From a virus (lineage: Duplodnaviria; Heunggongvirae; Uroviricota; Caudoviricetes; Crassvirales), in IMG/VR virus record IMGVR_UViG_3300037280_000040, positions 1-20,378 of that record: a DNA stretch of 20,378 bases; one strand, written 5' to 3'. This document shows positions 1 through 19,823 of this stretch, one piece after another. The translations under genes were made by a program, and so were the position numbers. Position 1 is the stretch's first letter. The number at the start of each line of letters is the position of its first letter. The notes under the pieces are model-generated. The model had not been told where the DNA came from and ran no database searches. It saw only the letters and a program-made list of their open reading frames with translations.

Positions 1-825
1 AGTAGAAATGGAAATATTAATCCAGTTGCTCAATATGAGAGTGTAATGGATTATAATAAAAATATTGACAAACAAATAGCAGCAGTATCAGCTAAATATA
101 AATCAATGCCAACTGGTTCATCTTATAATGATATGATGAAGAATCCTCAAAGATACTCTGAAGCTGACTATGACCAAAGAGGTATAGATGTACATCATAA
201 AGAAGTATCTAGATTAATGGCTATGAAAAAACCTACTGTACTTAGTACAGATGATTATAATAATTTAAAATCTTATGGTATTACTACTAAAGATAATTGG
301 AGAGATGTAAAAAATAAAATTGGTTTTACTGAGCAACATGCTCAGACAAGACATACAAGTTATGGATTTGGTCTATCTGATTATAAAGGAGCAGATAATC
401 TTATAACTCAAGCAGTCACATCAGATAATAAGAGTTTAACTCCTATTGGAGATGCTAGTGAAGGTTATAAATTACATACAGATAAAACAGTTAGTTTAAG
501 TGATTTAGAAAAGAATAGAGTAAATCCTGAGAAATCTAAACCTTTAATAACTGATATTAAGTACTCTCCTTTATTTAATGGATTAGTAGTAACTACTCAG
601 AGTGGTAAAGAGTATAAAATTAATCATGTGGTAAGTGATGATTATACTAAGACTATTCAAGATGGAGATAAACTTGTACAAAGTTATATACAACAAGGAC
701 GTTTAGACTTAGCTAAAAAAGCTAGTTTACAATTAAGAGATGGTTTATTACAAGTAGTTTCACATGGATTAAATCAAGTTGCAGGAGATACTAATAAAGA
801 CCCTTATTCACCTATAGGTAGATAA
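1..825 (+). CDS. 5'-truncated hypothetical protein, probably a further virion cargo protein (at least 274 aa visible)
   Basis: The frame of the 46..825 ORF is open back to base 1 (agt aga aat gga aat att... = SRNGNINPVAQYESV before Met46), so the true start is probably outside the window. Codon usage matches the downstream genes. It ends TAA TAA, 13 nt before the next ATG. The cargo role is inferred from position only. Confidence 0.75.
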   Translation, partial: SRNGNINPVAQYESVMDYNKNIDKQIAAVSAKYKSMPTGSSYNDMMKNPQRYSEADYDQRGIDVHHKEVSRLMAMKKPTVLSTDDYNNLKSYGITTKDNWRDVKNKIGFTEQHAQTRHTSYGFGLSDYKGADNLITQAVTSDNKSLTPIGDASEGYKLHTDKTVSLSDLEKNRVNPEKSKPLITDIKYSPLFNGLVVTTQSGKEYKINHVVSDDYTKTIQDGDKLVQSYIQQGRLDLAKKASLQLRDGLLQVVSHGLNQVAGDTNKDPYSPIGR

Positions 826-838
826 TAAAATAAAAATT

Positions 839-3800
839 ATGGCAAAACAATATGTAAATACTGATACAGGAGAAGAATCTGAAAGTATTGATGGATTACA
901 AGGAGTTAACAAAACTAAAAGTAAATATAAAAATGTAGTAACTCAGGATGTTCCAGCACCAACTGGTAATCCTGAGTATGATGCTTTAGACCAAAAAGCT
1001 AATCAATTTTTTAATAAACTTAAGTACAATCCTAGAGAAGCTTTAACTGATGAATCTGCTAATCCTACAGATTATGTAGGAGGTAATGGATTTGGTGAAT
1101 CTGAATATGATTCTGCTGTTAAAAATGAATCAGAAAGAGAAGATTTAGGTAATACAAGAGCATTAGAACAACCTTGGTATGATAAAATAGGTGCAGGTAT
1201 CTTAAAAGGTACTGTACTTGCAGGTACTACATTAGCTGATGGTTTAATAGGTACTATTGCAGGACTTGGTAATATGGCTAAGGAAGGTACTATGGATAGC
1301 TTTGTAGAGAATCCATTTAGTGTTGCTATGCAAGATATTAATAAATGGTCTGAAGAAGCTTTACCTAACTATCAAACAGATGTTGAGAAACAAAATGAAG
1401 CTAATGGTCAATGGTATAATAACATATTTACTGCTAACTTTTTAGGTGGGCAACTTAAAAACTTAGGTTTTATGGTTGGTGCAGGACTTGCAGGTGAAAT
1501 TACTGGTGGTTTAACTGCTAGTTTAATGGGACTTAATGATGCTAGGATGGCATTTGAAGGAGCTGCTGCTGTAGGTAAAACATATGAAGATGTAATTGGT
1601 GCTTATAAATCAGGAGATGCAGTATTAGATGGTATAGCTCTTAATAAACAATTATTTGCAGCTGCTAAGACTCTTAAAAATGCAGAACCTGTTATTAAAT
1701 TAGCAGGGGGTTTAGCAGGTTCATTAGGTTGGGCTAGACAGTCAGCTATAACTGATTCACAAGATTGGTTTAATACTCAACAAGCTAAGATAGGACAAGA
1801 TAGAGAAGCCTTTAGTGATAAAATACAAGGTACTTTACTTCAAGACCCTGAGTATTATACAATTGCTGAGACAGGTGACCCTACTAATCCTTATGCTAAA
1901 GTTCTTAATCAACAAGGTCAAAGTGTATTAGATAAACAAGTTAGTGATAGATATAATTCTAATCTACAGAAAGCTACTGATGATAGAATTAAAATGAGTA
2001 ATGTTGATTTTGCTATTAACTTACCATTATTAACTGGAGCTGAGATATTTCAATTTGGTAAAGCTTATGCAGGTGGATATAAAAATGCTAGAAAATTAGC
2101 TCCTTTTATAGAAAAAACTATAGGAGAAGAAGGAGAAAGTTATGCTGCTAAATTACCTAGCAAATTACAACAATATGCTAAGATGGCAGCTAATCCTTTA
2201 GTAGCAGGTAATCAATTAATGATGATGAATGCTGTAGCTACTGGAGTAGGTAATAAATTTGGAGATGAATTAGATAACTTTTTATCAGGTAAAATAGATA
2301 ACAAAAGTACTGAATCAACTGACCAATATATAACTTCTATAGCAAGTAATCTTGTTCAAGGAGCTAAAGATGTATATGGTAATCCTTCTAAATGGGAACA
2401 ATTTATTATAGGTGCTTTTGCAGGTGTTGTAGGAATTCCTGGTTTTAAAGATAAAGTTAAAGCTGATGGTTCTGTAGGTAAAAGTATTACTATGAATGGT
2501 GGTATATGGGATGAAATGAGAGAACATAAAACTCTTGTACCTGAAGTTAATGAGTTAGTGGATAAATTAAACTCAAGAGTTCAAGACCCTGAATTTATTA
2601 ATAGATATCAAGGACTTATTAGACATAATCACTTAGAAGAAGCTAAGTCAGATGCAGCACAAAAAGGTGATGAATTTGCTTATAAAAACTTTGAGCATTC
2701 TCAGTTAGTAAGTGATGCTGTTTTATTTGATAAAGCAGGTAGAATACAAGATTTATATGATAATGTAGATAAAGCTTCTATACTTAAACCTGAAGATGTT
2801 AAACAAGTAAGAGAATTATCTATTAATAAAGAAACTGGTAAGTCTGTATTTGATAATATGACTGATAAAGAAGTTATTGACCAAGTAAAGAAACAAGGAG
2901 AAGATACTAAAGCTACTATAGATAACTATAGAAAAGTATCAGATGCTTTAAAAACTAAAACAGGTGGACAATTAAAAGATGATGAGCTAGAAGAAATGAC
3001 TTGGATGCTTACTAAAATAGATAACTGGGAATCAAGATTCCAAGATATGTATAAAGAAGTTAAAGATAAATCTTCTGATTTACTGCAAACATTTAGAGAT
3101 AAGACTTATAAAGATGAAGATAATGTAGAACATCCTATTACTGATGTATTAGATATGCCACCAGTATTAATGTTATCAGCATTGCAACATTTTAATATAG
3201 GAGATGTAGCTAAATTACATTCAACTATCTATGCAAATAATGCAGAATCTATACAGAAAGAAGCTGATACACAACAAAGTGTATTAGATACTAAAGCTGC
3301 TTCTGCTAATAAAAGAGGTATTAATTCTGTTAAAGGTAAGTTAGATAGATTAACTGAAGCTATTAGAAGTAATAAAGAAACTTCTGTTAAATATGGTAAT
3401 TTAGCTGATAAGATGGAAGATATGGGTAGATTAGCTAAAGCTAGAAATGAATTTATTGATAAGTATGATGGATATACAAGAAATCCTGATGCTTTGAGAG
3501 CTATGCTTAATGATACTAAAGAAGCTGTTGTAAAAGAAACTGAGGATAAAAAAGTAGCAGATATATCTACTAAAGTAAATACTGCAAAGACTTATAAAGA
3601 TTTCAAAGACACTGTTAATAGTGCAGAATCTCCTGAGTTAAAACGTAAGGTTATTGATGAAGCAGTTGCTAATAATAACCCTATAGCTGCTGAATATAAA
3701 AAAGTATCTAAAGGATTAAATGATTTATATCCTGCTATTGATAATGTTACAAATATAACACCTGAGCAAAGAAGTTTAGCTAGAAGAATATTAAAAGCTA

Positions 3801-6800
3801 AGTCAGATAATATTGAGGATTTAAAAACCTTATTAGATAAAAATACTTATAGTAATATAAGTGAAGATAATCTATGGGTTAATCCTAATACAGGTGAAAC
3901 TACTGACCCTCAAGATATGCAGAAAGCTCAGAATGCTATTGGAGCAGCTATTAATTCAGTATTAAAAAGTACTAAAGTAGAAGATAAAATTAAAGATTTT
4001 GCTAATTCTGAATCAGTTGCGGCAAATACTCCTGAAGTACCTGAAGAAAATATTCCTAATAGACCTGATAAACCTACTCTAGTAGGAGGAAATGTTACAA
4101 CTAAAGACTTATTAGATGGTAACAGAGATATAAATACAATTATGGAACCCTCTAATACTCCTGCCAATACTAATACTGGTAGTAGAGATTGGATTCAAGT
4201 GATTCATGAAATTGATTTAGATAGGTTTAAAAATAGTGGAGAAATTGCTTATATAGGAGACTTAGAAAATAAATCTGCTTATCATACTATATATAATTAT
4301 GTAAAAGATAATGGTGGATTTGATTATGTTAATAAGGGACAACTTAAAGCAGGTAGTAAAGTTGAATTTATGATTGACCCTGCTTGGGAAAAGTTAGATA
4401 CTAATAATGTAGGAACTGTCTTTATTACTCAAAATGGAGTAGTATTAGGAGCTATTGATAGGTCAGCTAATAGAATGTCTCAATTTGCAGGTATGAGTGA
4501 ATTTGCTCAGAGAGTTAGAAATGAGTTTGATGCTAGAGAAAATAAAGATGATACTAAATTTATATCTAAAGAAACTAATGATGTATCTAAAGTATTCTCA
4601 GGTAGAATTCCTTTTAGAAAAAGTGGAGATATTGAAAGATTTTTAGGTACTATTCCTGGTATTAAAGATGGAGATACTGTTAGTAAAAAAGTTATTTTTG
4701 GTATTATGCAAAAAGGACAATTAATTACTAATAAAACTGGAGTTAATACTGCTGATATCAAAGGATTAGATATAAGAGGTGGTAATAATGATGGTAGACT
4801 TTATTTATTAGTTGAAGGTGCAGATGGTAAATACTATCCTACTTTAGTTAAAACTAAGAGATTTAATTCTACTGAGTTTAATTTAAATGACCCTACTATT
4901 CAGAATACTCAGAGATACAAAAGTATTATAAAAATTGCTACAGATATGTGTAGTGCTACTGACCCTGAAGAGTTTACAAGACATTTTAATACTCTTAATA
5001 ATGAATTATATTTAGGAGATTTCCATATAAATTATAATGAGGATGGAGATGGTTCTATTACAGTTAGAAAAGATACTGCTGATGCAGGTCCTCAAACTAA
5101 AATACTTACAAGAGACCCTGAGAAAGTTCCTGAATTAGCTAGTGATTTTAGTAGTAATGGACCAGTATTAAATACAGATATTAAAGAAGGTGAAACTGGT
5201 GATAGACCTATTAATGAAGTAGTTAATGATGTATTAAATGCTATACAAAAAGATGGTACTTATTTACAAATTGATAAAGATGCTATTAATAGAGGAGAAT
5301 ATAATGATAAGCTTATAAATGATAATATTTTAAGTAGTAATATAGATAAACTAGGTGTAGTTGGTGCAGGATTTGAAATGAAGGGTAAGGATAAAGTAGG
5401 TGAAATATTAAAGACTGAAAAAGTTGAAGTACCTAAGTTAATTACTCCTGCTACTTCAGTAACTGAATCTAAAGGAACTGAAGTTAATTACGGTGGTAAA
5501 TATACTGTAACTTCTAAAGGAGATATTCTTAATGATAAAGGTGTACCTGTTAATCAATTAACTGAATCTAAATCTCAAATTATTAAAGATATTGCTTGGA
5601 TAACTGAGTTAAACTCAGGACAATATGGTAAAAATATTGGAGACAAAAAAGTTACTATGTCTTGGGATAGTAAAGCTAAAGAAGCAGATTATTATCTTAC
5701 TCCTAGTGGTAGAATATTAAAATATAGAGATGGAATAGTTGATAGATATGTTATTGGACATGAAGAAGAAGCTGTAAAGAAATCTTTTGGTAAGAAAGAT
5801 GTATTATCAGAGGTTACAAAACAAAGTACTCCTCTTGTTACTTCTAGTGCTATTACAAATAACTCAATAAAAGCAGATATTGATAAAACTACTTATAAGG
5901 AATATCATGCTAAATTTGAGGACTTAGATACTAATAAAGATGAAACTGGTTACTATTTAAACTCAGATAATAAAGTAGTTAAAGATTATGTAAGACCTCT
6001 TGGTACTTTTATGTCAGAAGGAGATTCTATTCCTATGCATGTAGTAAAAGATTTCTATAGTGGCAAAGAAGTATTTATGGGAATTATAGATGCTAATGGT
6101 AAGACAGCAGGTAAAGCTGATTCTATTGAGTTATTAAGAGAAACTATTGATAAAAACAAATCTGCATTAGCTGAGAGAGCTAAAGAAGAAACTATTATTA
6201 GTAGTTCTATTATTCCTAAATCTAATGAAACTACTCTAAATCAAGTTAAACCTATAGAAGTTAAACCTGATACATCAAAACCTTTTAATCCTACACAAGG
6301 AATATTAGGAGATGATTTATTAAGTTCTATGAATAAAAAACCTAGGAGACCTAAAGCAAGTGAAGTAGATACTAAATCATGGCAAGTATGGGACCAACCT
6401 AAAGAAATAGAGCATCTTAATAAAATATTACCAAATATTGTAAGAGGTGATTTACTTAAGATTCATAAAGGTTTAATAGAAGTAAATAAAGGTGGTGCTG
6501 CTGCTTGGGGTATATATAAAGATGGACTTATGGTTATATCTGATATAGCTTCTAAAGGAACTGTATATCATGAAGCATTCCATTTAGTTATGGATAAATT
6601 TACTTCATCATCTGAAAAAGCTGCATTATTTGCAGAAGCTAGAGGTAAATGGGGAAGATTATCTGAGTCTAAATTAGAAGAAAATATGGCTAATGCTTAT
6701 AAAAATTATACATTAACTGAGGTAGCTGATAAATCATTGGGTAGAAGAATTATTGATTTCTTTAAAACTACATTAGGATTATCCAAAACTAATACTGCCT

Positions 6801-7036
6801 TATTAGATAAATTCTTTTGGGATATTAATAAAGGTAAGTATGCAGATAAGGAAATAACTAGTGAATTTAAAAATAAATCAGTTAAAAGCTTGGATAACTC
6901 AGATAATTTGCATACCTTTGCTAATCTTGATTCAAATACTAGAGACTTACTTAGTAAAAAAGGTATAGATTTAGAAGTTTGGAATAATTTGAATAAGGAT
7001 GAAAAAATTAATGAATTAAAATGTATATCAATTTAA
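839..7036 (+). CDS. Giant virion cargo/ejection protein (2065 aa) with N-terminal membrane-interacting helices and a C-terminal zincin metallopeptidase domain
   Basis: Long intact ORF. Gly/Ala-rich hydrophobic segments at aa ~117-535. H1911-E-A-F-H1915 followed by LEENMA (E1947/E1948) and SLGRRIIDFFK, a gluzincin/MPTase-type pattern. Directly upstream of the RNAP gene. Confidence 0.85.
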   Translation: MAKQYVNTDTGEESESIDGLQGVNKTKSKYKNVVTQDVPAPTGNPEYDALDQKANQFFNKLKYNPREALTDESANPTDYVGGNGFGESEYDSAVKNESEREDLGNTRALEQPWYDKIGAGILKGTVLAGTTLADGLIGTIAGLGNMAKEGTMDSFVENPFSVAMQDINKWSEEALPNYQTDVEKQNEANGQWYNNIFTANFLGGQLKNLGFMVGAGLAGEITGGLTASLMGLNDARMAFEGAAAVGKTYEDVIGAYKSGDAVLDGIALNKQLFAAAKTLKNAEPVIKLAGGLAGSLGWARQSAITDSQDWFNTQQAKIGQDREAFSDKIQGTLLQDPEYYTIAETGDPTNPYAKVLNQQGQSVLDKQVSDRYNSNLQKATDDRIKMSNVDFAINLPLLTGAEIFQFGKAYAGGYKNARKLAPFIEKTIGEEGESYAAKLPSKLQQYAKMAANPLVAGNQLMMMNAVATGVGNKFGDELDNFLSGKIDNKSTESTDQYITSIASNLVQGAKDVYGNPSKWEQFIIGAFAGVVGIPGFKDKVKADGSVGKSITMNGGIWDEMREHKTLVPEVNELVDKLNSRVQDPEFINRYQGLIRHNHLEEAKSDAAQKGDEFAYKNFEHSQLVSDAVLFDKAGRIQDLYDNVDKASILKPEDVKQVRELSINKETGKSVFDNMTDKEVIDQVKKQGEDTKATIDNYRKVSDALKTKTGGQLKDDELEEMTWMLTKIDNWESRFQDMYKEVKDKSSDLLQTFRDKTYKDEDNVEHPITDVLDMPPVLMLSALQHFNIGDVAKLHSTIYANNAESIQKEADTQQSVLDTKAASANKRGINSVKGKLDRLTEAIRSNKETSVKYGNLADKMEDMGRLAKARNEFIDKYDGYTRNPDALRAMLNDTKEAVVKETEDKKVADISTKVNTAKTYKDFKDTVNSAESPELKRKVIDEAVANNNPIAAEYKKVSKGLNDLYPAIDNVTNITPEQRSLARRILKAKSDNIEDLKTLLDKNTYSNISEDNLWVNPNTGETTDPQDMQKAQNAIGAAINSVLKSTKVEDKIKDFANSESVAANTPEVPEENIPNRPDKPTLVGGNVTTKDLLDGNRDINTIMEPSNTPANTNTGSRDWIQVIHEIDLDRFKNSGEIAYIGDLENKSAYHTIYNYVKDNGGFDYVNKGQLKAGSKVEFMIDPAWEKLDTNNVGTVFITQNGVVLGAIDRSANRMSQFAGMSEFAQRVRNEFDARENKDDTKFISKETNDVSKVFSGRIPFRKSGDIERFLGTIPGIKDGDTVSKKVIFGIMQKGQLITNKTGVNTADIKGLDIRGGNNDGRLYLLVEGADGKYYPTLVKTKRFNSTEFNLNDPTIQNTQRYKSIIKIATDMCSATDPEEFTRHFNTLNNELYLGDFHINYNEDGDGSITVRKDTADAGPQTKILTRDPEKVPELASDFSSNGPVLNTDIKEGETGDRPINEVVNDVLNAIQKDGTYLQIDKDAINRGEYNDKLINDNILSSNIDKLGVVGAGFEMKGKDKVGEILKTEKVEVPKLITPATSVTESKGTEVNYGGKYTVTSKGDILNDKGVPVNQLTESKSQIIKDIAWITELNSGQYGKNIGDKKVTMSWDSKAKEADYYLTPSGRILKYRDGIVDRYVIGHEEEAVKKSFGKKDVLSEVTKQSTPLVTSSAITNNSIKADIDKTTYKEYHAKFEDLDTNKDETGYYLNSDNKVVKDYVRPLGTFMSEGDSIPMHVVKDFYSGKEVFMGIIDANGKTAGKADSIELLRETIDKNKSALAERAKEETIISSSIIPKSNETTLNQVKPIEVKPDTSKPFNPTQGILGDDLLSSMNKKPRRPKASEVDTKSWQVWDQPKEIEHLNKILPNIVRGDLLKIHKGLIEVNKGGAAAWGIYKDGLMVISDIASKGTVYHEAFHLVMDKFTSSSEKAALFAEARGKWGRLSESKLEENMANAYKNYTLTEVADKSLGRRIIDFFKTTLGLSKTNTALLDKFFWDINKGKYADKEITSEFKNKSVKSLDNSDNLHTFANLDSNTRDLLSKKGIDLEVWNNLNKDEKINELKCISI

Positions 7037-7042
7037 TAATAT

Positions 7043-10000
7043 ATGGCAAGTTGTATAACTTTAACAGGTAAGAATCTTGAATTAGCAACAGATGTATCAA
7101 ATGAATTAGGCTATAAGCTCCCTTTTATAGGAGCTAAGCTTAATTCTTGGATAAGTGCTAATAATGAACAAGAAGCAATTGACAAAGGAGAATATAGATT
7201 ACCTTCTAAAGAAGAATTAATTAATCATATTAAGAGTACTACTGGTGATTACATCAGTAGTACTTTTGTGCATAATATAGAAGAAGTTTCTGCTATAGAT
7301 AAAGTACATAAAGTATATGACCCTCAAACTAAAATTGATAGGTCTGTACTTGTATCTAATATGTTTACAAGAGTAGTAGATAATTTACAGAGAGTTAATC
7401 CTGATTTAAGTAGAGAAGAAGTAATTAATAAAGAGACTCCTCAAGGCATTTTTAATGCTGTAAAGAGTTCTTTTGAGAAGAGTTTAACTATAGAAGGATT
7501 GGACCCTAGGAGAGCAGCAGAGTTTAAAAAAGTATTAGATAATTTTAGTGGATTAGCTGAGCTTTCTACAAGTTATTTAAAGATTACTGAAGGATTAAAA
7601 TTTGATGTAAATTCATTAAAAATAGCAAAAGCTAATTTAAGTGCTGACCCTTCTGACCAAGGAGAAATAGTTGAACCATCTAATACTCAATCTTTTAAAG
7701 AGGAACAAGTTAAGGATGGCTGGATGATTAATTTTAGACATTTATCAGCTAATGAATCATTAAGTCAGAATGTTAGAAGAGTATTATCTAATATAGTAAA
7801 GAATGGTTTTGATGGTGAACCTGAAGTAGATGATTTAGGATTTGAGAGACATATTCCTGCTGATTATGCTTTTAATTCTTTAATGAGAAAATTAAGTGGT
7901 ATGACTAAAGATACACACTTAATGCCTATGTTAGAAGAATTAGCTACTAAAAAATCATGGGTTTATGATATAATAGATACTATAGCTGATATAGATGGTA
8001 ATCATTCTAAAGAACAATTAGATTTACAAAGTCAATTTTATAGTAACTTTAGAAAAGATTTTGTTCCATTATGGATTCAAAAACCTTTTATTAATGCTGC
8101 TGGTAATATTGGATATAAAACAGTGCAAATTAATGCTACTCAAGGTGTAGGACACTTATTATCAGAGATTAGAGATAACTATGAAAGTGGTACTAGATTA
8201 ACCAGTAATGCTATATATAATACTGATGGTAGAATTAATAAAGAAAATATTGATGCTAATTTAGTAAAAACTAATAATTTATTAAAAGAATATAAAGGAT
8301 TAGAATTATTAGCTAAAGATACCTCAGAAGTACATAATGAAATATTAGGAGCTTGGATAGAAAAAAATATTAGTTCTATACAAGATTTATCTAAATCTAT
8401 TGGTATTGATATAGATACAGATACTCTTAATCAGGCATTAACTTATACTATGCATGATGATAGTGCTAAATTAAAACTAACTCCTTCAGTTGAAGGTTAC
8501 TTAGATACTTTAAGAGGTATATTTGCTAATGTAAAATCTGGAGAAAAAGATGAATTAGGTAATGAAAGTAGAATTGATTTAAAAGCACAATCTAAATCTA
8601 TTGGTTCATTAGCTGAGAAATTAGCTAATGTAGCAGATGATAGTATAGAAAGTTCTGTAAATGAGAATGGTAAAAGTCATTACTCTCATTTAGTTCCATC
8701 TTATATAGGTAAACTTATCAAAAACTTTCAAATTAGTCATGGTAATATGACTGACTTTAAAGAGTTTATTGGTACTGAATTTGCTAAATATAATTGGTTT
8801 TATGATGCAGAAAAGAAACAATTTAGAGGAGATTGGTTAAGACAATTAGCTGATTTAGGAGATGAAGGTACTAATGCAAGAAATTTATTACAAAGAAAAT
8901 CTTTATTACACTTTGATAATGTATCTTACTCAGATTTAACTGAGACTGATTATACTTTAGCTTTAATAAATGAGTATTTTTCAGACTCAACTAATAAGTC
9001 TGCTTATTATCATGTACCTATTTTAGCAGATGCTCCATCAGCTGAGTTTATTAAATTTAAAAAATATATTGATGGTAATTTAACTCCAACTGGTAGTTAT
9101 AAGGAACATTTATTAAATCAATTTGTAGAACTTGCTAATCAAGAATTAGATAGAATTACATTAGTTAATAATAGAAAACCTCTTATTGCGGATGGTACTG
9201 TAAAAGAAATAGATAATTTTGATAAGAATGGTAATAAATTTCAATTCTTTCCTAAATTAAATGATATTATTGATAAAATTAAAGATTTAGCTGCTAGTGG
9301 AGAACCTTTAGCAGGTGAAAAAATTAATAGATTAATGAGAGATACTATTGAATCCTCTATAAATGAATCTTTTGATAAAAGATTAAAAGAATGGGATGAA
9401 ATGGGATTATTTGAAACTAAATCTAAAGAAGATAATACATTAAAAATATTAGAAACACCTAATGCTAGAAGATTAGTAAGAGGTAAAGAATTAGGAGATA
9501 TACAAGGTGCTACCAAAGCTGATTTAGAGAATTACTTTTGGAATAGTTTCCATGCTACTTCTCAAATAATTCAGCTTACTACAACAGATATGGCTTATTA
9601 TAAGAGTATAGAAGATTTCCAAAAGAGAAATAAACAAATCTATGCTCCTGCTATTAGATTAAATACAAAATCTCAATATGGTAGAACTGTTGAAAGAACT
9701 ATGTATTTAAAAGACCATGAGATAGCATCAAGAAATTTAGAACATATTGATACTATTTTAGAGTCTAAAATAAAAAGTAAAAATAATCCTACAGGTACTA
9801 TTACTCCTTTAAATAAAGCTAATATTATGGCTCAATTTGGAGGTGCTAATTTATGGACTAAAACAGTTGATGGTAAAGTTGTATCAATAAGTAGAGATGA
9901 ATTTAATAGTATTAAAAATAATAAAACTTTACAACCTCAAAGTTTTTATTCTGTAAAAGTAGATGGTAAAACTTATAAATCAGTTACTAAATCAGTAAAT

Positions 10001-13000
10001 GAAACAGATGCTCAAGCATACAGGTCATTAAGTTCAAGACGTGCTGTAGCAGATATGGCAGGACAATGGACTTCTCAAATGCAACATACCTATGATAACT
10101 TTAAAAAAGGTACTTGGGATATGCAGGATTTTAATACTTTATGGAATGCTGAGAAACCTTTCTTATATACTCAAACTGAAGTTAATTCAGGAGTAGATGG
10201 ACAAGTTATTAAAGTACCAGTTCAGAATAAAAACTCAGAAACATTATTATTAATGATGGGTCTAATGGGTAAATCTCCTGAACTAAGTGCTTTAGAAGAA
10301 TTTATGGAAAAGAATCAAATTGATGTAGTTCAATTTGAATCAGCTGTTAAAGAAGGAGGTCAAGGTAAAGTAAATATTAATGACTTAGGTACTAAAGAAA
10401 CTATATTAGACAGACTTACTTCTAAAATGCAAGAACCTGATACTATTCATGAATTAAATTATGAAGATTATGGTATACAAAATACTGTTCCTGAGCATTT
10501 AATGGATAGTGAAGCTTTATATGGTACACAGATTAGAAAATTATCTATGGCTGATATTTCTGATGACCTTAATTTTAGATTAAATCTAGATATGGGTGAT
10601 GGTACTTCTAAACAATTAACTAAGAAAGAAGCTTTAGATTTATACAATCAATTACATGTTGATAATATAGTTGATTCATATAAAGAAGCTAAAACTATAT
10701 TTGGCAGTAATCAAGAGATTGAGAAACTTTTATTAGAAGAGGTAAAAGGTAGTAAAAGGTTTGGTATTGATATGGTAAGAGCAGTAACTCTTAATGATAA
10801 AGGAGAATTTACTATACCTTTAAATGAGCCATCTCAAGCTTTAAGAGTTCAAAGTTTATTAAATTCTATTATTAAAGATAGAATCACTAAACAGAAAATG
10901 AATGGTGGTAATGCTGTACAAGTAAGTGATTTTGGATTAGCTGATGATTTACATATAGTATTTGAAGGAGAAGGTGCTGACAAGAGAATTAAACATTTTG
11001 AATGTTATATGCCTTGGTACTCTAAAAGATACTATGAGCCACTTATAGATTCTAAAACTGGTACTTTAGATATTAATAAATTACCTGAAGGACCTGAAGG
11101 AGATGAGTTAAGGAAATTAATTGGTTATAGAATTCCTACTGAGGATAAATATTCAATGACTCCTCTTTATATTAAAGGCTTTTTACCACAGCAATTAGGT
11201 GGAGCAATTATGCTTCCAAGTGAAATAACAACTATTTCAGGTAGTGATTTTGATATTGATAAGTTATTTTTAATGATTCCTAACTTTGAAGTTACTCATA
11301 AAAAAGCTGAAGCTAATGCTATAAAAGCTTTATATGGTGAATTAAAAAATAGAGAAGAATTTAAAGGTAATACTCCTAAAGAGATTAAAGATAAATTACT
11401 TACTATAGTTCAACAAAAGATTAATGGTGAACAATTTACTAAAGGTAGTATTGAGGATAGAGCTAGTTACTATTTAGACCAAAATAAAAGTAGTATTCCT
11501 ATGGAACCTACTGCTCAAAAAGTAAAATATAATTGGGATATAGGGTCACAAAATAATAGTAAAGAAGCTAGAGATAATATGTTACAAGATTTAACTAGGT
11601 CAGTATTAACAAGTTCTGATACTGCTAGTAAAATGCTTAATCCTGGTGGTTTTGATTCATTAAAATCATCTGCAAGATTAGTAACATTATTGGATAATAT
11701 GCCAGTAAATGAATTAAGAGACCTAGCTAAGTCACATGGATTTAATCATCCTTATGATTATTTAAAAAGTTTAACTCTTGAAGAAGCTAGTGATTTAGCA
11801 TCTAAATATAAAGAACCTCTTAATATGTTAGACCCTAGAACACAAGTTAAATTACATCAAAGAAATATGAATGCAGCTAAATTGATTGGTATATTTGCTA
11901 ATCATAATGCTAATCATGCTTTAATGCAACATACAGAACTTGAGTTAACTAGAGATAATCATTATACTGATGCAGAAGGAAATGTAAAGACAATTAATGG
12001 AGGTGCTTACACTTTAAATAATAAGAATAATACCAGTCTACATGATATAAAAGCTGCTGATGGTTCATTTATTTCTAGGAATATGGCTGTACCTTTAGCT
12101 GCTTCTGTAGATGCTGTAAAAGACCCTGTATTGAGTGACCTTAATATGAATACTTTTACTGCTGATTTAGCATCATTCTTAATTAGAAATGGTCATAGTC
12201 ATGATACAGTGTCTTTATTATTAAGACAACCTATCATTAGAGATATTACTACTGAGTATTACAATAGAGTAAAAGAAGGAGATAGAAAAGATGATATTAT
12301 AGATGATGTACTTAATAGATATAATGAAAATTCAGACCCTAGAGTAACAGAAAGATATAAGAATCAATTATTCTTAGATAAAGATATGGCAATGGCTATT
12401 GCAGTATCTAGAGAAGCTAAAGCTATGACTGAAGAAGAAAGAGCTCATCATTCTGATTTAGATATTAGAAATTACTATAATAATCAAATAAATGTTGGAT
12501 ATTTATTTAAACATTTGATGGCTAATGGTGATATTTTAGGAGATTTAGTAAATGCTACTAAAGCTGATACAAGTAATGGTGGAGCTGGTCCAACTAATGC
12601 TGATACTTTAGAGAAATTAAGAAAAGTTGATGATTATTTAGATAAGATTACTCCTAGTCCTGAAACAGTTCCTTTAAATAAAAGGAAAAGAATCTTACTT
12701 AATAATGCTCATGTAGTAGATAATAGTTTAGATTTTAATAATCCTGAAGAATTAAGAAGTAAATTATTAGATAGTAAATTACCTTATATACAAGCTTTTT
12801 ATTCATTAGGTCTAAAAGAATCACAAACTATGATGGGACAACATTTTCCTACTTTTAATCCTGAATTTAAAGCTGTATTTAATCAATTTGCTGATATTAC
12901 TAAATCAGGTAAATTAGATGCTAAAACTATTAATAATATCCAAAATGATTTATATGCATATATAATGACTGGTAAGAGATTTTTAGGAGGTAGCAATGAA

Positions 13001-14101
13001 GAAATGAGAGCTAAAAGAAATGCTTTTATTAATGAGTTTATACCTGAATATACTAAGATTATACAAAATAATCCTGATATAGCTAAATTAGATATTATTA
13101 AAGCTTTACAAGTACAGAAATCATCTGATATAGATGGATTAACTACATTAATATCAAGAAGTGTGGGAGATTTATCTCAGGCAGCTAAAGAGAATATTAC
13201 TAATAGTTGGACCTCTTTATTTTATATGGGAGAACAAGGACAACAGTTAGCTATGAATTTATTTCAATATGCTTTTTATAGAAATGGTTTTGCCTTTAAT
13301 AATAATAGTTTTATGCATTTAGCTCCTACAGTTATTAAAGAAGCAGCTCCTGAGTACTTAAATACTATTAGAGATTTAGCTAGACAAAATGTTCCTAAAG
13401 ACCAAGTTGATACTATTTATCAACACTTTATGTTACAATATTTGAGAAATCATAGTGATAATAGAAGGTTTGTACCTAGTATAGACCCTACTGAATCAAG
13501 AGCTAATATCTTTAATACTAATAAAGAATTAAATAATAATTTTACTATTACTGTAGATAGAAAAACCTCTTCATTAGAAGATAAAAAGTTTACTTCAGTA
13601 AATAATGACCAGGAAATTAGATGGGTTCCTTTAGTATCTATTCCTTATAAAGGTGGAGAGGAATTATTTGTTAATGATAATTATTTAGATGATAGTAAAA
13701 ATGGAAATGATACTGCTACTTATACTAGAATTGACCCATTAGGAGCTAAAAATAATTTCTTAGAATATGAAATGGACACTCCTCATAATGAGATAAGTTC
13801 TGTTATTAATAGAGATGTAAAAGCTCCATCAATAGACTCTAACTCTTATTATAGTGAATCTGATTTAATACCTGATTTTGATGAGTATAAAAAGAATAAT
13901 CCTCAACAGTTTGAAGAAACTCCTAGATATACTGAATATGACCAAATTAAGAAAGAAGAGGATTCAGCTAGACAAGCAATTGAGCAACAATTTGGAGAAG
14001 GTTCTACTAAAGATATTTCTGATAATATAGATGATAAGATTAAAGATTATTATAAAGACCAAGAGTATAAAAGAAGATTAGAAGAAGATAATATTTGTTA
14101 A
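7043..14101 (+). CDS. Virion-packaged single-chain DNA-dependent RNA polymerase (two-barrel/DPBB, crAss-like, phi14:2 gp66 type), 2352 aa
   Basis: Catalytic DxDxD motif in GSDFDIDKL (D1402/D1404/D1406, nt 11246-11260), preceded by GYRIP (R1363). Upstream conserved-looking blocks TDAQ (D989), QNKNS (K1063), FESAVKEG (K1103) and GTQIRKL. Size and motif position fit crAss-like vRNAP. Confidence 0.92.
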   Translation: MASCITLTGKNLELATDVSNELGYKLPFIGAKLNSWISANNEQEAIDKGEYRLPSKEELINHIKSTTGDYISSTFVHNIEEVSAIDKVHKVYDPQTKIDRSVLVSNMFTRVVDNLQRVNPDLSREEVINKETPQGIFNAVKSSFEKSLTIEGLDPRRAAEFKKVLDNFSGLAELSTSYLKITEGLKFDVNSLKIAKANLSADPSDQGEIVEPSNTQSFKEEQVKDGWMINFRHLSANESLSQNVRRVLSNIVKNGFDGEPEVDDLGFERHIPADYAFNSLMRKLSGMTKDTHLMPMLEELATKKSWVYDIIDTIADIDGNHSKEQLDLQSQFYSNFRKDFVPLWIQKPFINAAGNIGYKTVQINATQGVGHLLSEIRDNYESGTRLTSNAIYNTDGRINKENIDANLVKTNNLLKEYKGLELLAKDTSEVHNEILGAWIEKNISSIQDLSKSIGIDIDTDTLNQALTYTMHDDSAKLKLTPSVEGYLDTLRGIFANVKSGEKDELGNESRIDLKAQSKSIGSLAEKLANVADDSIESSVNENGKSHYSHLVPSYIGKLIKNFQISHGNMTDFKEFIGTEFAKYNWFYDAEKKQFRGDWLRQLADLGDEGTNARNLLQRKSLLHFDNVSYSDLTETDYTLALINEYFSDSTNKSAYYHVPILADAPSAEFIKFKKYIDGNLTPTGSYKEHLLNQFVELANQELDRITLVNNRKPLIADGTVKEIDNFDKNGNKFQFFPKLNDIIDKIKDLAASGEPLAGEKINRLMRDTIESSINESFDKRLKEWDEMGLFETKSKEDNTLKILETPNARRLVRGKELGDIQGATKADLENYFWNSFHATSQIIQLTTTDMAYYKSIEDFQKRNKQIYAPAIRLNTKSQYGRTVERTMYLKDHEIASRNLEHIDTILESKIKSKNNPTGTITPLNKANIMAQFGGANLWTKTVDGKVVSISRDEFNSIKNNKTLQPQSFYSVKVDGKTYKSVTKSVNETDAQAYRSLSSRRAVADMAGQWTSQMQHTYDNFKKGTWDMQDFNTLWNAEKPFLYTQTEVNSGVDGQVIKVPVQNKNSETLLLMMGLMGKSPELSALEEFMEKNQIDVVQFESAVKEGGQGKVNINDLGTKETILDRLTSKMQEPDTIHELNYEDYGIQNTVPEHLMDSEALYGTQIRKLSMADISDDLNFRLNLDMGDGTSKQLTKKEALDLYNQLHVDNIVDSYKEAKTIFGSNQEIEKLLLEEVKGSKRFGIDMVRAVTLNDKGEFTIPLNEPSQALRVQSLLNSIIKDRITKQKMNGGNAVQVSDFGLADDLHIVFEGEGADKRIKHFECYMPWYSKRYYEPLIDSKTGTLDINKLPEGPEGDELRKLIGYRIPTEDKYSMTPLYIKGFLPQQLGGAIMLPSEITTISGSDFDIDKLFLMIPNFEVTHKKAEANAIKALYGELKNREEFKGNTPKEIKDKLLTIVQQKINGEQFTKGSIEDRASYYLDQNKSSIPMEPTAQKVKYNWDIGSQNNSKEARDNMLQDLTRSVLTSSDTASKMLNPGGFDSLKSSARLVTLLDNMPVNELRDLAKSHGFNHPYDYLKSLTLEEASDLASKYKEPLNMLDPRTQVKLHQRNMNAAKLIGIFANHNANHALMQHTELELTRDNHYTDAEGNVKTINGGAYTLNNKNNTSLHDIKAADGSFISRNMAVPLAASVDAVKDPVLSDLNMNTFTADLASFLIRNGHSHDTVSLLLRQPIIRDITTEYYNRVKEGDRKDDIIDDVLNRYNENSDPRVTERYKNQLFLDKDMAMAIAVSREAKAMTEEERAHHSDLDIRNYYNNQINVGYLFKHLMANGDILGDLVNATKADTSNGGAGPTNADTLEKLRKVDDYLDKITPSPETVPLNKRKRILLNNAHVVDNSLDFNNPEELRSKLLDSKLPYIQAFYSLGLKESQTMMGQHFPTFNPEFKAVFNQFADITKSGKLDAKTINNIQNDLYAYIMTGKRFLGGSNEEMRAKRNAFINEFIPEYTKIIQNNPDIAKLDIIKALQVQKSSDIDGLTTLISRSVGDLSQAAKENITNSWTSLFYMGEQGQQLAMNLFQYAFYRNGFAFNNNSFMHLAPTVIKEAAPEYLNTIRDLARQNVPKDQVDTIYQHFMLQYLRNHSDNRRFVPSIDPTESRANIFNTNKELNNNFTITVDRKTSSLEDKKFTSVNNDQEIRWVPLVSIPYKGGEELFVNDNYLDDSKNGNDTATYTRIDPLGAKNNFLEYEMDTPHNEISSVINRDVKAPSIDSNSYYSESDLIPDFDEYKKNNPQQFEETPRYTEYDQIKKEEDSARQAIEQQFGEGSTKDISDNIDDKIKDYYKDQEYKRRLEEDNIC

Positions 14102-14119
14102 TATAAAAATAAAGAGTAT

Positions 14120-17100
14120 ATGAGTGAAGCATGTAGAATGATTCCCCCAAGAAAAGGTAGTAATGAGGATAGTAAGTTATTTAAAGACTTACTATCCTAT
14201 ACTAATGATAGGGATTTAAGTTTAAGAGCTAAATATTGGTCAGAATCTAGAGATGCAGAGAAGTATCATTTAGATAAGGATTCTAATGGAGAAGTAAAAT
14301 TAGAAGCTTTAATGAAAAGATTTGATTTAACTAAAGAATTACCAGTATCTAAAATTATAAACAATATAAAAAAAAATATTGGTACTTTAAAATCAGATGG
14401 TTCTAATAAAGTATATTTAACTGAGAAAGAGGTATTTGATAAAGCTTCTGATTTTAATAAGAATAATCCATTAAATGAAAACTATGTAGCTACTTATGGT
14501 AGAGTACCTATTGGAGATAATGGAGAAAAGAGTGGTTTTACTGTTAGAGTAGAAAAAAAGACTCAACTTAATTCTTTAGATGGTAAAAAGATGGAAATTA
14601 ATATGAAACTTAATGATAAAATTAAGGACATATTAACCTCTTATGGTATAGGTATTGGTGGATTAAATGAATTAGATAAAAGAGTAAATGCTACAGGTGT
14701 TACTGACTTTTCTACAGCTACTAAAACTGCTAATGGTTTATTAGAAATAATAAGATTAGCTGAGGGTAAAAAAGGAGAGCAAGCATTACCTGAAGAATTT
14801 GGACACTTTATTATTGAAACTTTGGACCAACATCCTTTAGTAAATAGATTACTTAATTTATTAGCTAAAGATGGTAACTATAAAGAAGTTTTAGGAGACC
14901 AATATGAACAATATGACCATTTATATAATAGTAATCCAGTACTATTAGCTAAAGAAGCAGCAGGTAAATTAATGCATCAAGGATTCCTACAAAGTCAAGA
15001 AGTTAAACCTTCTTTTTTTAAGAATATTTTAGATAGAGTTATTGCTTTTACAAAATCTATGTTTTCTTCTAAAAATAAAGAAGGATTAAGTACTGAGTTA
15101 TCTAAGAGTATGGCTACTTTAGAGTCTAGTTTTAATAGTTTAGCTACTAATGTACTTGATGGTACTATGAATAGATTTATTGATATAGATCATGCTACTT
15201 CTCATACAACTAAGCTATATGAGGTAGCAGATACAATTGATAAAGATAGAGATTCATTGAAAAAGATTATAGAAATTGAAACTAAAAGATTATCTATATT
15301 CAGTGCTAGAAAAAATGGACAAGGTTTTGATGATGCTCAGAGAATAATGCTTTCTAAATTAGAAGCTGATTATAAGGGACATAAGGAGTTAGAAGGTATT
15401 TATACCTTTGTAGATGATACTATGGGTAAATTAAAAAGTATTAATCAAAGATATAATGATTTAAGAAACTTAACAGATAGAGACTCTATTAATCAAATGG
15501 CTTCTGTATTAAGAGATGCTAAAGATTTCTTAACTGCTTATACTCCTATATTTGAAGATTTAAGTTTAAGTATACAAGATGCTAATAGAATAGGTGATAC
15601 AAGATTTAAAGATAAAATTGAGAGTAATTTTAATGATACAAGACAGTTATTAATGGGATTACAAGACCAATACTCTGAATTAGCCTTACCTTTATTATCA
15701 AAATGGTTAGAACCTTGGGTAGGTAATTCTTTAAAAACTACTTGGGGTAAAAATAAAGGTAGAGTTAGAAGTTTAATGGAAGTTTTAACTGAAGCAGATA
15801 AAGATATACACTTTATGGACAGATGGTTAAACTCTATGGGAGATTCTAATAACTCAATGTTAAGATTAATGGACCATGCTGTTAAACTTACCAAAGAAGA
15901 GGGTAGAGCTGAACATTTAAATTTGGAGAAAGAACTTAAAGGTCATCAATTAGTACTTGAATCTAAAGGAGTTAAGGGTAATGATTTTATGTTTGAAAAA
16001 GATGAGAATGGTAAAATTACTGGTAGATATATAAGTAAAGTAGATACAAGAAGATTTGCTAATGATTATAAGGTATTTAGAGAAACTATGAATGCTAAAT
16101 ATCCTGAGATAACATCAGAAAATTCAGGTGCTTATAATAATGAAAGAATGGTTTGGGAACATACTCATATTGATAAGATAGGTGGTAAATCATATCCTAA
16201 AGAATCAATGTATGAAAATGCTGCTTTTAAGAATTTAACTCCTCCTCAAAGAGAATATTATAATAAAATCATAGATATAAAAACTAAATTGGATTCTTAT
16301 TTACCTGATAAGTATAGAGATACTTATAAAGCTATCCAAATCAGAAAAGACTTAGTAGAGAGATTAAAAGCTAATCCTTCAGGAGCTGGTAAAGAATTAT
16401 GGGAATCTATTAAAGATAGTATAATGAGACGTGCTGATGATGTAGATTTAGGTCAAAAGAAAGGTGCTCAGACTGATTTTAATGGAGAAGTAATTAAATT
16501 CTTACCTATCTATTATACTCATATGTTAGAAGATACTCATAGTATATCTACTGATGTAACTTCTACAATGACTGCTTATGCAGCTATGGCTATTGATTTT
16601 GACAAAATGAATAAAGTAATTGATACTTTAGAATTAAGTAGAGATTTAGCTAAAAATATGGATATTACTCAGAATAAAAAGGGTAAACCTATTGTAGAAA
16701 AATTCAATTCAATGGGTAGAACTATTGAGAATAAAGTTACTAATAAAGGAGATAATAGTAGAATAATTGAGAGATTAAATGACTTCTTTGATATGCAGGT
16801 ATATGGTCATTATAATAAAGACCAAGGTTCTGTTAATATATTAGGTAAAGAGATTGATGTAGCTAAAGCTGCAAGTACTTTTAATAGAGTTACTTCACTT
16901 AGTATTTTAGGTGGTAATGCTTTATCAGCAGGTTCACATATTGGTCGTGGTATTGCTCAATTAGGTATAGATGCTGTAAGTGGTGAACATTTTAATCTTA
17001 AAAATGTAGCTGTAGCTGATAAAAATCTTAGTTTATTATTACCTTCTTTAGTTTCTAATATTGGTACTAGAGTTAAAACAGATAAATTATCTCTTATTAA

Positions 17101-18130
17101 TGAGAAATTTAATGTAATGCAAGATTATGAGCAACATGCTAGAGATTTAAAAATGGATAGAAATAGTGGTTTCTCTAAATTAATGGGAACAAACTCTTTA
17201 TTCTTTTTAAATAATGCTGGAGTATATTGGATGCAAAATAGACCAACACTATCGTTAATGGATGCTTATAAATTAGTAGATTCTAAAGGTGTACAACATA
17301 GTTTATTTGATTCTTATGAAGTTAAACCTATCATAAAAGATGGTTTAAAAGTAGGAGCTACTCTAGAGTTAAAAGATGGTTATAAAAAACTAGATGGAAC
17401 TGATTTTACACAAAAAGATGTTACTGATTTTACTTTAAAAGCAGGTAAAATTACTAATAAAATGTTTGGTGCATATAATAAATCTGATATGAATGCATTC
17501 CAACATCATGCTGTAGGTAGATTAGTAAGTATGTTTAGAAAGTTTATGGTACAATCTTATAACAGAAGATTTGAATCACATAATTTTGATTATGATATAC
17601 AAGCTGAACAAGAAGGATATTATGCTACTTCAGCTAATTTCTTAAAAACTTTATATCAAGATGTTAAACATGGTCAATTACATTTAGCTACTCATTGGAA
17701 TGAATTAGCTCCTCAGGAAAGAATGAATATGATGAAATCTATGACTGAGGTAGGAACATTTATTGCATTAAGTACAGCATTAGGACTTATAACCTTTTCT
17801 ACTGATAAAGATAGACCTTGGGCAGCTAAAATGCTTGAGTATGAAATGAAAAGATTACACTTAGAAATGGGTTCTATGATACCTATTAATTATCAATTTC
17901 CTAAAGAAGCTATGAAGTTATTAACTTCTCCTGCTGCTAGTATTGATTATGTTAATAAGATATTAGAATTAGGTAATTTTGCTAAATATGGTAAAGTTTA
18001 TAAGAGTGGTAAATATAAAGACCATTCAGGATTTTATAAAGATGTTATGGACTTATTACCTACTAAGAATGCTATTGAGAAATCAATACATCCTGAATTA
18101 GGAATAAATTGGTTTAAAGCAGTTGATTAA
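14120..18130 (+). CDS. Giant virion cargo/ejection protein (1336 aa) with a degenerate zincin-like domain and a C-terminal hydrophobic helix
   Basis: Long intact ORF directly after the RNAP. ALPEEFGHF (E225-E-F-G-H229), then LAKEAAG (E279) and FFKNILDRVIAF, echoing the zincin of the 2065-aa protein. Largely helical. Hydrophobic VGTFIALSTALGLITFS near the C-terminus. Confidence 0.8.
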   Translation: MSEACRMIPPRKGSNEDSKLFKDLLSYTNDRDLSLRAKYWSESRDAEKYHLDKDSNGEVKLEALMKRFDLTKELPVSKIINNIKKNIGTLKSDGSNKVYLTEKEVFDKASDFNKNNPLNENYVATYGRVPIGDNGEKSGFTVRVEKKTQLNSLDGKKMEINMKLNDKIKDILTSYGIGIGGLNELDKRVNATGVTDFSTATKTANGLLEIIRLAEGKKGEQALPEEFGHFIIETLDQHPLVNRLLNLLAKDGNYKEVLGDQYEQYDHLYNSNPVLLAKEAAGKLMHQGFLQSQEVKPSFFKNILDRVIAFTKSMFSSKNKEGLSTELSKSMATLESSFNSLATNVLDGTMNRFIDIDHATSHTTKLYEVADTIDKDRDSLKKIIEIETKRLSIFSARKNGQGFDDAQRIMLSKLEADYKGHKELEGIYTFVDDTMGKLKSINQRYNDLRNLTDRDSINQMASVLRDAKDFLTAYTPIFEDLSLSIQDANRIGDTRFKDKIESNFNDTRQLLMGLQDQYSELALPLLSKWLEPWVGNSLKTTWGKNKGRVRSLMEVLTEADKDIHFMDRWLNSMGDSNNSMLRLMDHAVKLTKEEGRAEHLNLEKELKGHQLVLESKGVKGNDFMFEKDENGKITGRYISKVDTRRFANDYKVFRETMNAKYPEITSENSGAYNNERMVWEHTHIDKIGGKSYPKESMYENAAFKNLTPPQREYYNKIIDIKTKLDSYLPDKYRDTYKAIQIRKDLVERLKANPSGAGKELWESIKDSIMRRADDVDLGQKKGAQTDFNGEVIKFLPIYYTHMLEDTHSISTDVTSTMTAYAAMAIDFDKMNKVIDTLELSRDLAKNMDITQNKKGKPIVEKFNSMGRTIENKVTNKGDNSRIIERLNDFFDMQVYGHYNKDQGSVNILGKEIDVAKAASTFNRVTSLSILGGNALSAGSHIGRGIAQLGIDAVSGEHFNLKNVAVADKNLSLLLPSLVSNIGTRVKTDKLSLINEKFNVMQDYEQHARDLKMDRNSGFSKLMGTNSLFFLNNAGVYWMQNRPTLSLMDAYKLVDSKGVQHSLFDSYEVKPIIKDGLKVGATLELKDGYKKLDGTDFTQKDVTDFTLKAGKITNKMFGAYNKSDMNAFQHHAVGRLVSMFRKFMVQSYNRRFESHNFDYDIQAEQEGYYATSANFLKTLYQDVKHGQLHLATHWNELAPQERMNMMKSMTEVGTFIALSTALGLITFSTDKDRPWAAKMLEYEMKRLHLEMGSMIPINYQFPKEAMKLLTSPAASIDYVNKILELGNFAKYGKVYKSGKYKDHSGFYKDVMDLLPTKNAIEKSIHPELGINWFKAVD

Positions 18131-19139: not shown

Positions 19140-19823
19140 TTACTTTTTATTATTATTTTCTTGATTAAAAAATCCAATATTTGAATCAGTTCCTGCTACT
19201 ACAGATTTTGAATACATAATAGTAGCTGCATTAGAGGTTGTATAAGCTGCTTTTACACCTCTTGTAGTATTATCATGATTAAGAGTATTAGTAACATTAA
19301 TCTTAATATTTCTAACAATTAAATCAGTATCATCTTTTGTACCTACAAAAGTAATAACATATCCTAATTCTTCACAAGTCTTTATAAGACTAGCTACTTT
19401 AATAGAGCTGAATCTAACTGAGTCATTTTCTCCTCCATCTGTAAAGATTTTAACTAATACTTTTTCATTAAATCTACAATCTAATATATTAGTTAAAGTT
19501 TGACCAATAGCATCATATAATGCTGTACATCCTGTTGGAGGAAAGAAAGTTAAATAATCAATATTTAAATCATTGATATTTACTCTATTACAGATAGTTT
19601 GAATATTATTTCTATAGTCAAATTCAACTATAGTATAAAGATATTCTACTTCTTTGTTAAGTTTAAGAGCAGCTATTTCTTCTTTCATTCCTTCAACAGC
19701 AGCTTCAAATTTACCTCCCCTCATACTGCCACTACCATCTAAGATATGTACAATATGTATAATAGCTTTACTTTGTCCAGCAGTATCTACTATAATCTTT
19801 TTATTTTCTTTGTTAATTCTCAT
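19140..19823 (-). CDS. Stand-alone von Willebrand factor A (vWA) domain protein (227 aa)
   Basis: Complete MIDAS signature: HILDGSGSM (DxSxS), GCTALYDAIG (T) and IFTDGGEN (D), with a vWA-like beta/alpha alternation including ITFVG. Confidence 0.9.
   Translation of the reverse strand: MRINKENKKIIVDTAGQSKAIIHIVHILDGSGSMRGGKFEAAVEGMKEEIAALKLNKEVEYLYTIVEFDYRNNIQTICNRVNINDLNIDYLTFFPPTGCTALYDAIGQTLTNILDCRFNEKVLVKIFTDGGENDSVRFSSIKVASLIKTCEELGYVITFVGTKDDTDLIVRNIKINVTNTLNHDNTTRGVKAAYTTSNAATIMYSKSVVAGTDSNIGFFNQENNNKK

Follow-up and report, generated by a model that had tools for sequence, protein, structure and literature searches.

Paired cysteines at the facing ends of three giant virion proteins of crAss-like phages point to a probable head-to-tail cargo chain

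We analysed a stretch of 20,378 nucleotides from a phage of the order Crassvirales (IMG/VR record IMGVR_UViG_3300037280_000040, positions 1 to 20,378), which is called the window here. It carries three consecutive genes for giant virion proteins, named A, B and C in this work, and B corresponds to a virion RNA polymerase (RNAP). The three proteins contained only six cysteines (Cys) in 5753 amino acids (aa). Four of the six were located at facing ends: the fourth residue from the end of A, position 4 of B, the last residue of B and position 5 of C. The two outer ends, the N-terminus of A and the C-terminus of C, had no Cys. An initial annotation of the window had reported this arrangement. We rechecked its calls of open reading frames (ORFs), codon positions and Cys inventory, and all of its coordinates and counts were correct. 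It had also estimated that such a placement would occur by chance with a probability of about 1e-8. The arithmetic was right, and conservation provided the stronger test. The results described below make it probable that A, B and C are tied end to end, in gene order, through these facing Cys. The genes and the features of their junctions are as follows.

839-7036, plus strand: protein A, 2065 aa, homologue of crAss001 gp47 and of the 1797-aa virion protein of phi14:2; Cys at 1371 and 2062.
6914-7033, plus strand: tail connector of A, about 40 aa (...WNNLNKDEKINELKCISI), from the alignment of A C-ends and a tail hidden Markov model (HMM).
7022-7024, plus strand: codon (tgt) of junction Cys A2062, fourth from the end (...LKCISI, then stop).
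7043-14101, plus strand: protein B, virion RNAP, 2352 aa; Cys at 4, 1321 and 2352.
7043-7237, plus strand: head connector of B, about 65 aa, an extended N-terminal peptide with Cys4 followed by a small helical bundle.
7052-7054, plus strand: codon of junction Cys B4 (MASC).
11003-11005, plus strand: codon of the internal Cys1321 of B.
14009-14098, plus strand: acidic tail of B (...RRLEEDNIC), the second connector type.
14096-14098, plus strand: codon of junction Cys B2352, the last residue.
14120-18130, plus strand: protein C, 1336 aa, homologue of crAss001 gp49; the sole Cys is Cys5.
14120-14239, plus strand: head of C (MSEACRMIPP...SKLFKDLLSY), from alignment, motif listing and model.
14132-14134, plus strand: codon of junction Cys C5 (MSEAC).

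The identity of the three proteins was examined by comparison with known phages. B matched the structure of phi14:2 gp66 (PDB 6VR4, E 5e-25), and it was 38.5% identical to the crAss001 RNAP over 97%. Judged from its sequence, B is a crAss-type two-barrel virion RNAP. HMMs built from window A and C covered crAss001 gp47 and gp49 from end to end. PHROGs and Pfam scans gave no family for A, B or C. The cargo block A/B/C is located downstream of the gene for cargo protein C2 in the window, and the order in the closest relative was C1-C2-A-B-C, where C1 and C2 correspond to Pfam crAss_CARG1 and crAss_CARGO2. In crAss001, gp47, gp49 and gp50 are virion cargo placed in the capsid (PMC10172136). Mass spectrometry finds the trio in virions of crAss001 (PMC10172136) and of phi14:2 (preprint 10.1101/2020.03.07.982082).

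The initial annotation had proposed to check whether the terminal Cys are conserved and co-occur in pairs in orthologous triplets across Crassvirales. This check was run, and the Cys passed it. The locus set contained 90 loci, of which 7 were obtained by exact look-up or from GenBank and 80 from IMG/VR by a scan with a core alignment; phi14:2 was added. The RNAP cores were 28-100% identical. A scan of viral contigs with a single RNAP sequence gave no matches, whereas the alignment-based scan worked. ORFs were called by script, with TAG read as glutamine for four loci, and were labelled with HMMs from window A, B and C and from the C-terminal module of A. At genuine protein ends in this set, Cys was present at the C-end of A in 63 of 63 cases, at the N-end of B in 83 of 83, at the C-end of B in 83 of 83 and at the N-end of C in 81 of 81. 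The outer ends gave the opposite result. No Cys was found at the N-end of A or of A+B (0/13) or at the C-end of C (0/82). At the C-ends, the distance of the junction Cys from the terminus was 1-4 residues in A and 1-10 in B; at the N-ends, the Cys occupied positions 3-8 in B and 3-6 in C. The same trend was observed in the best 120 RNAP homologues (37-73% identical), nearly all of which start with M-x(1-5)-C; most of them had a Cys among the last 10 residues listed.

The frequency of Cys outside the junctions was 0.15% in 108 dereplicated proteins (220,635 residues). A 10-residue window would therefore hold a Cys 1.5% of the time by chance. The junction Cys was the sole Cys in 42 of the 108 proteins, and conservation of all four ends was complete in 36 clusters with core identities below 50%. 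In alignments, no column but the Cys was near-invariant over the final 230 aa of A. Likewise, Cys4 alone was invariant over the first 200 aa of B, and Cys5 alone over the first 400 aa of C. Single phages gave results consistent with this. In phi14:2, there were four Cys in 5398 aa, and all were at junctions (A1797, which is the last residue, B3, B2179 and C3). L069 likewise had four Cys in about 6300 aa, all at junctions. In crAss001, the sole Cys of gp47 (2341 aa) was Cys 2339 and the sole Cys of gp49 (1349 aa) was Cys 5, while gp50 had Cys 5, Cys 2404 and one internal Cys. The cargo proteins C1 and C2 had no Cys (window C2, crAss001).

A signal at the level of the DNA at the gene junction was also considered. 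In crAss001 and L006, the A gene has the opposite orientation and is distant from the RNAP gene start, and the C-terminal Cys is kept. The crAss001 arrangement ruled out a DNA-level signal, and the feature thus belongs to the proteins and not to the DNA of the gene junction. The conservation of the Cys holds at the order level and beyond. Of the two internal Cys in the window, Cys1321 of B was aligned with Cys in 39 of 54 homologues, and with V, A or I in the remainder. It is probably a buried core residue outside the junction system.

We also compared loci in which the genes were fused or were broken at another place. Such a break concerns the C-terminal part of A, where a conserved module is located.

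6569-6583, plus strand: zincin-type motif HEAFH at residue 1911 of A, in the conserved C-terminal module (motif scan; module HMM matches).

The fused homologues kept the module order A-B-C. The A+B fusions of P0123, L049 and L077 had a single Cys in 3900-4500 residues, which was at the C-end, and none at the start. In L062, the A+B fusion had two Cys, one internal and one at the C-end. The protein downstream of the A+B fusions started with M-x-x-x-C, as read in L049, L062 and L077. In L009, the sole Cys of A (1570 aa) was the penultimate residue, and the sole Cys of the 4280-aa B+C fusion was Cys4. There was no Cys near the fused junction in the B+C fusion of L081. The A+B+C fusions P0126-P0129 had zero to two Cys, none of which was terminal or at a junction, and two of the four had none at all. 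The Cys were lost in pairs exactly at the fused junctions, and therefore the number of terminal Cys was twice the number of breaks. The end of A with the start of B, together with the end of B with the start of C, was the sole pairing that left no orphan Cys in any architecture.

The break was located upstream of the zincin module in L063, L069, L079, L088 and L009. The zincin was then part of B, and the Cys pair was found at the new break. A 'cysteine switch' acting on the A zincin was rejected for this reason, since the Cys pair tracked the break and not the zincin. The motif itself, as YHEAFH, was present in 10 of 24 sequences of the A C-terminal alignment. These results showed that the junction Cys track polypeptide breaks and not particular domains.

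The regions around the junction Cys were then compared between junctions. About 40 residues of the A tail around the Cys were conserved, even where the preceding sequence diverged, and about 60 residues of the B head around Cys4 were conserved. In the AlphaFold2 model of the B head (predicted local distance difference test, 86.7), residues 1-8 were non-helical and were followed by helices at 9-22, 26-39 and 43-47. The model of the C head (73.2) was non-helical at residues 1-9. The B-head HMM matched residues 1-50 of the C protein in L063, L069, L077, L079 and L088 (E 6e-10 to 3e-8). The A-tail HMM matched the C-ends of the upstream proteins in L069 (7e-6), L079 (1e-5) and L077 (0.014). Since both HMMs matched at the other junction of this clade, the tail and the head travel as a cognate pair. 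At the B|C junction of the window, the pair was different: the tail of B is acidic (...EEDNIC), and the head of C follows the pattern M-x-x-x-C-x-[ILM]-x-P. With two distinct types of connector, the order A, B, C would be set. When the models of the B head and the C head were searched against PDB with Foldseek, there was no match at E <= 0.001, no known docking-domain fold and no likeness to gp26 of phage A4, which is discussed below. An intein or Hedgehog-type junction was also considered. There are only 0-9 residues beyond the C-terminal Cys and 2-7 before the N-terminal one, and this type of junction was rejected because no domain adjoins the junction Cys (Pfam: none). The junction Cys are not catalytic and are placed on flexible ends.

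Several loci appeared to be exceptions. In L033 and L083, the start of C had been called too far upstream, and the real starts were MAKKC and MAKSC. In L050, the end of B carried on in a separate 716-aa ORF ending in ...PFEEC. These three were therefore rejected as exceptions. Group I introns (Rfam RF00028) interrupted the RNAP genes of L065 (11164-11397, 100 bits) and L046 (11807-12041, 47 bits), in the region of the conserved GYR-PTEDKYS motif. These interruptions at the RNA level carried no Cys. A 1.3-kb insert split the RNAP gene in L045 (10396-11722) and L089 (10432-11755); it had no Rfam match, and about 85 core residues were lost from the two ORFs. In L054-L056, B (~2200-14047) had an N-terminal extension of about 1300-1650 aa, and both terminal Cys were kept (MGC..., ...HKYC). 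The long ORFs of L005, L008, L043 and L081 were observed only with TAG as a sense codon (table 15), and table 11 fragmented the giant genes.

A comparable link has been seen in a different phage. The pre-ejectosome of cyanopodophage A4 (Anabaena phage A-4L) was resolved within the capsid by cryo-electron microscopy (cryo-EM). The C-terminal helix of gp27 lies in a cleft of gp26, and Cys1715 and Cys5 form a disulfide (PNAS 2025, PMC12002296). In the A-4L genome, Cys1715 of gp27 (1717 aa, ...DNPCQF) and Cys5 of gp26 (1114 aa, MSKHC) were the sole Cys of their proteins. The likeness to the window is that these are consecutive ejection proteins, otherwise poor in Cys, with one Cys near the upstream C-terminus and another around position 5 of the downstream partner; in the window, the corresponding pairs are A -4 with B 4 and the last residue of B with C 5. 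However, A4 has one link, no three-protein chain and no RNA polymerase. The disulfide was also given as a single structural detail, and not as a conserved rule or with a link to fusion and fission (PMC12002296). Comparison of A4 gp26, gp27 and gp28 with A, B and C gave no HMM or BLAST match, and the hhalign probability was below 1%. A4 is thus best taken, by analogy, as an experimental precedent for the mechanism and not as a homologue or a family member. The initial annotation had regarded a linkage of this kind as not described. This held for crAss-like phages, since neither the rule nor its link to fusion and fission is stated in the papers searched, but not for A4, where the disulfide was seen by cryo-EM (PMC12002296).

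Other known systems share parts of this arrangement. The proteins gp47, gp50 and gp49 of crAss001 and the RNAP-flanking proteins of phi14:2 are true homologues of A, B and C, with the same four junction Cys. The word 'cysteine' occurs 0 times in each of the papers on these two phages, however, and the crAss001 trio was unresolved in the virion map (PMC10172136). The fused A+B+C forms have the same modules in the order A-B-C, and they differ in that peptide bonds take the place of junction Cys. The authors who described the fused forms suggested cleavage into parts, whereas the split forms appear to do the reverse by re-joining the parts. N4 and DEV (Schitoviridae) are similar in that a giant ejected polymerase is thought to cross the tail unfolded, as 'beads on a string', and in that the ejected proteins are depleted of Cys. 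They differ in that the polymerase is a single chain of 3400-3500 residues with essentially no Cys and an unrelated fold. More distant analogies come from unrelated proteins. The interchain disulfide of AB toxins withstands transport as a covalent link and is then cut by reduction in the cytosol. Von Willebrand factor and mucins form linear polymers through terminal Cys. In modular polyketide synthases, docking domains set the order of subunits by short modules at the C-tail and the N-head. These cases serve as analogies only.

Based on the above results, the following mechanism is considered probable. A, B and C would represent a polyprotein that is split into three genes, and each break would be bridged after translation, when the C-terminal tail of the upstream protein docks on the N-terminal head of the downstream one. 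The single Cys of the tail and the single Cys of the head would then form an intermolecular disulfide in the assembled particle. The product would be a linear chain, A-S-S-B-S-S-C, with about 5750 residues, and would correspond to the single-chain fusions of other lineages. We infer that the bond at the crAss-like junction is a disulfide. It may set a 1:1:1 packaging ratio and hold the three proteins together in the cargo or pre-ejectosome. The position of the Cys, 1-10 residues from the ends, would keep the chain thin and unbranched for passage through the tail, and in the cytoplasm, thiol reductases of the host would free the parts. The proteins may be threaded through the tail in order and released by reduction. 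The initial annotation had called A a membrane-channel protein. This label was not retained, since a sequence scan showed no hydrophobic membrane-type segment in A, B or C, and the channel role in crAss001 was proposed for gp45/gp46 (PMC10172136) and not for the homologue of A.

Several observations weigh against a disulfide-linked chain. The junction bond has been observed in no crAss-like phage. Phages assemble in a reducing cytoplasm, and the gut hosts are anaerobes, which places the time and place of oxidation in question. One relic Cys was present at the old B end in the B+C fusion of L008. On the RNAP-core tree (FastTree), there were at least four changes between split and fused states for A|B and at least three for B|C, and these fusion-event counts are approximate because the deep nodes of the tree are weak. 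In L070 (7247-14085), a frame change divided the RNAP into pieces of 1803 and 474 aa, and the break had neither a gap nor a Cys; this break, and the one that leaves gene A in two pieces in L078 (18138-22360), are probably assembly errors or recent damage. In L054-L056, a hairpin terminator follows B on its 3' side, and no C homologue was found in the 8 kb downstream. A4 gp27 and gp26 have no likeness to A, B or C in sequence or fold. In the crAss001 atlas, the three cargo proteins are without clear density and their Cys are unmentioned, and the many disulfides that were seen belong to the tail and the outer surface of the capsid and not to the cargo (PMC10172136).

The alternatives were weighed against the same evidence. 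A bridge between the facing Cys that uses a bound metal ion, as a clasp with nearby acidic residues, or another thiol-based link instead of a disulfide is unlikely. The conservation and covariation apply equally to such a link, acidic residues are frequent just before the Cys at the B end (EEDNIC, DEEGNxIC), and a link of this kind could form during assembly in a reducing cytoplasm. However, each junction has two Cys, with no conserved His or second Cys nearby, and the Cys is the only invariant column. The two-protein forms keep just two Cys; the pairs are thus independent, and a single site shared by four Cys is excluded. In A4, the only solved case, the link is a plain disulfide (PMC12002296). 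Another explanation is that the terminal Cys anchor each protein elsewhere, to the portal, C1/C2, the capsid or the DNA, or that they serve a free terminus through a transient thioester or end protection. We consider this improbable. It would fit the fact that no direct contact between A and B or between B and C has been shown; a co-folding run of the 81-aa A tail and the 110-aa B head, as single window sequences without alignments, scored 0.24 against a mark of 0.34 and gave no verdict. On the other hand, the outer termini never carried Cys in the locus set, the terminal Cys followed the number of breaks, and the tail and head modules relocated as a pair. C1 and C2 are also without any Cys. 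The A+B+C fusions, without terminal or junction Cys and in two cases without any Cys, must still be packaged.

Pairing in another order, with the RNAP closed on itself (B4 with B2352) and A tied to C, or with each Cys bound to its own copy in a second molecule, is very unlikely. Both termini of the RNAP are flexible in the phi14:2 crystal, and an intramolecular bond would be sterically possible. However, the A+B fusions keep the B end and the C start and the B+C fusions keep the A end and the B start, which would leave an orphan Cys in each form, and the two-protein phages Lbo-JY46 (described below) and A4 pair an upstream end with a downstream start. It is hardly conceivable that the few Cys of Cys-poor proteins lie near the ends by chance or composition. 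The distance that counted as 'near the end' had been picked after seeing the data in the first reading, but the full conservation of the four ends in the 36 divergent clusters, against the 1.5% expected per 10-residue stretch, refuted this. The initial proposal of a head-to-tail linkage of the proteins, in gene order, through their facing Cys was thus the best-supported reading, by conservation, by paired loss on fusion and by the precedent of A4.

The same proteins were also found beyond Crassvirales. Homologues of A and C without a virion RNAP were present in Cellulophaga phage phi4:1 (Lightbulbvirus, L091) and Leptolyngbya phage Lbo-JY46 (L092). In phi4:1, the sole Cys of a 1957-aa protein was its last residue, a 517-aa protein had Cys 4 and 516, and the sole Cys of a 1914-aa protein was Cys 3. 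In Lbo-JY46, the 1552-aa A-like protein ended in its sole Cys and was followed by a 2748-aa C-like protein with Cys 4 as its sole Cys. Residues 504-718 of the latter resemble 'lysis' or internal-virion proteins of small podophages. Since homologues of A and C occur without a virion RNAP, these are more likely general ejection proteins than RNAP subunits, and the GenBank label 'RNA-polymerase subunit' of crAss001 gp47 and gp49 is doubtful for the same reason. From the comparison of these genomes, the crAss polymerase looks inserted between the general ejection proteins A and C.

A broader reading combines these results, and we hold it tentatively, as possible without being probable. Several unrelated phage lineages (Crassvirales, Lightbulbvirus and cyanophages) would use portable connectors, each tail or head having one Cys, of at least two non-interchangeable types. 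These would build an ordered covalent train of ejected proteins, and the links would be freely swapped with peptide bonds in evolution. The crAss RNAP would be a passenger in an older A-C chain. The train would be threaded as one strand in the N-to-C direction, and it would be dismantled by reduction in the host cytoplasm.

The question has wider meaning because crAss-like phages are the most abundant human gut viruses. The storage of a polymerase cargo of about 700 kDa, and its passage through the tail, was the question posed in the crAss001 and N4 papers, and the tail is narrower than the folded cargo proteins. From the sequence rule, the joined ends and their order can be predicted. The rule can be tested on existing virion preparations, and possibly on mass-spectrometry data that have been collected. 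It also offers a rule for annotation, in which junction Cys mark real protein ends and help to separate true gene breaks from introns, recoding and assembly errors.

Two further features are located on the plus strand of the window.

1-825, plus strand: 3' part of the gene for cargo protein C2 (crAss001 gp46 type), with the 5' end beyond the window start; no Cys.
11246-11260, plus strand: catalytic RNAP motif DFDID at residue 1402 of B, of the DFDxD type (motif scan).

The ORF at 1-825 matched proteins of the Pfam crAss_CARGO2 family from L001 (E 1e-14) and L003 (E 1e-17) by BLASTP, and synteny agreed with this assignment. The DFDID motif of B is the motif described for phi14:2 gp66 (preprint 10.1101/2020.03.07.982082). 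In protein C, two residues were near-invariant among 31 homologues, E225 of an EEFGH motif (window 14792-14806) and E279 (at about 14954). Their conservation is compatible with a degenerate zincin-like site in C. Downstream of the cargo block, at 19140-19823 on the minus strand, the window encodes a protein of 227 aa in which Pfam identifies a von Willebrand factor A domain (E 3.6e-5). A protein of this kind is found at the same place in crAss001 (gp52) and L001.

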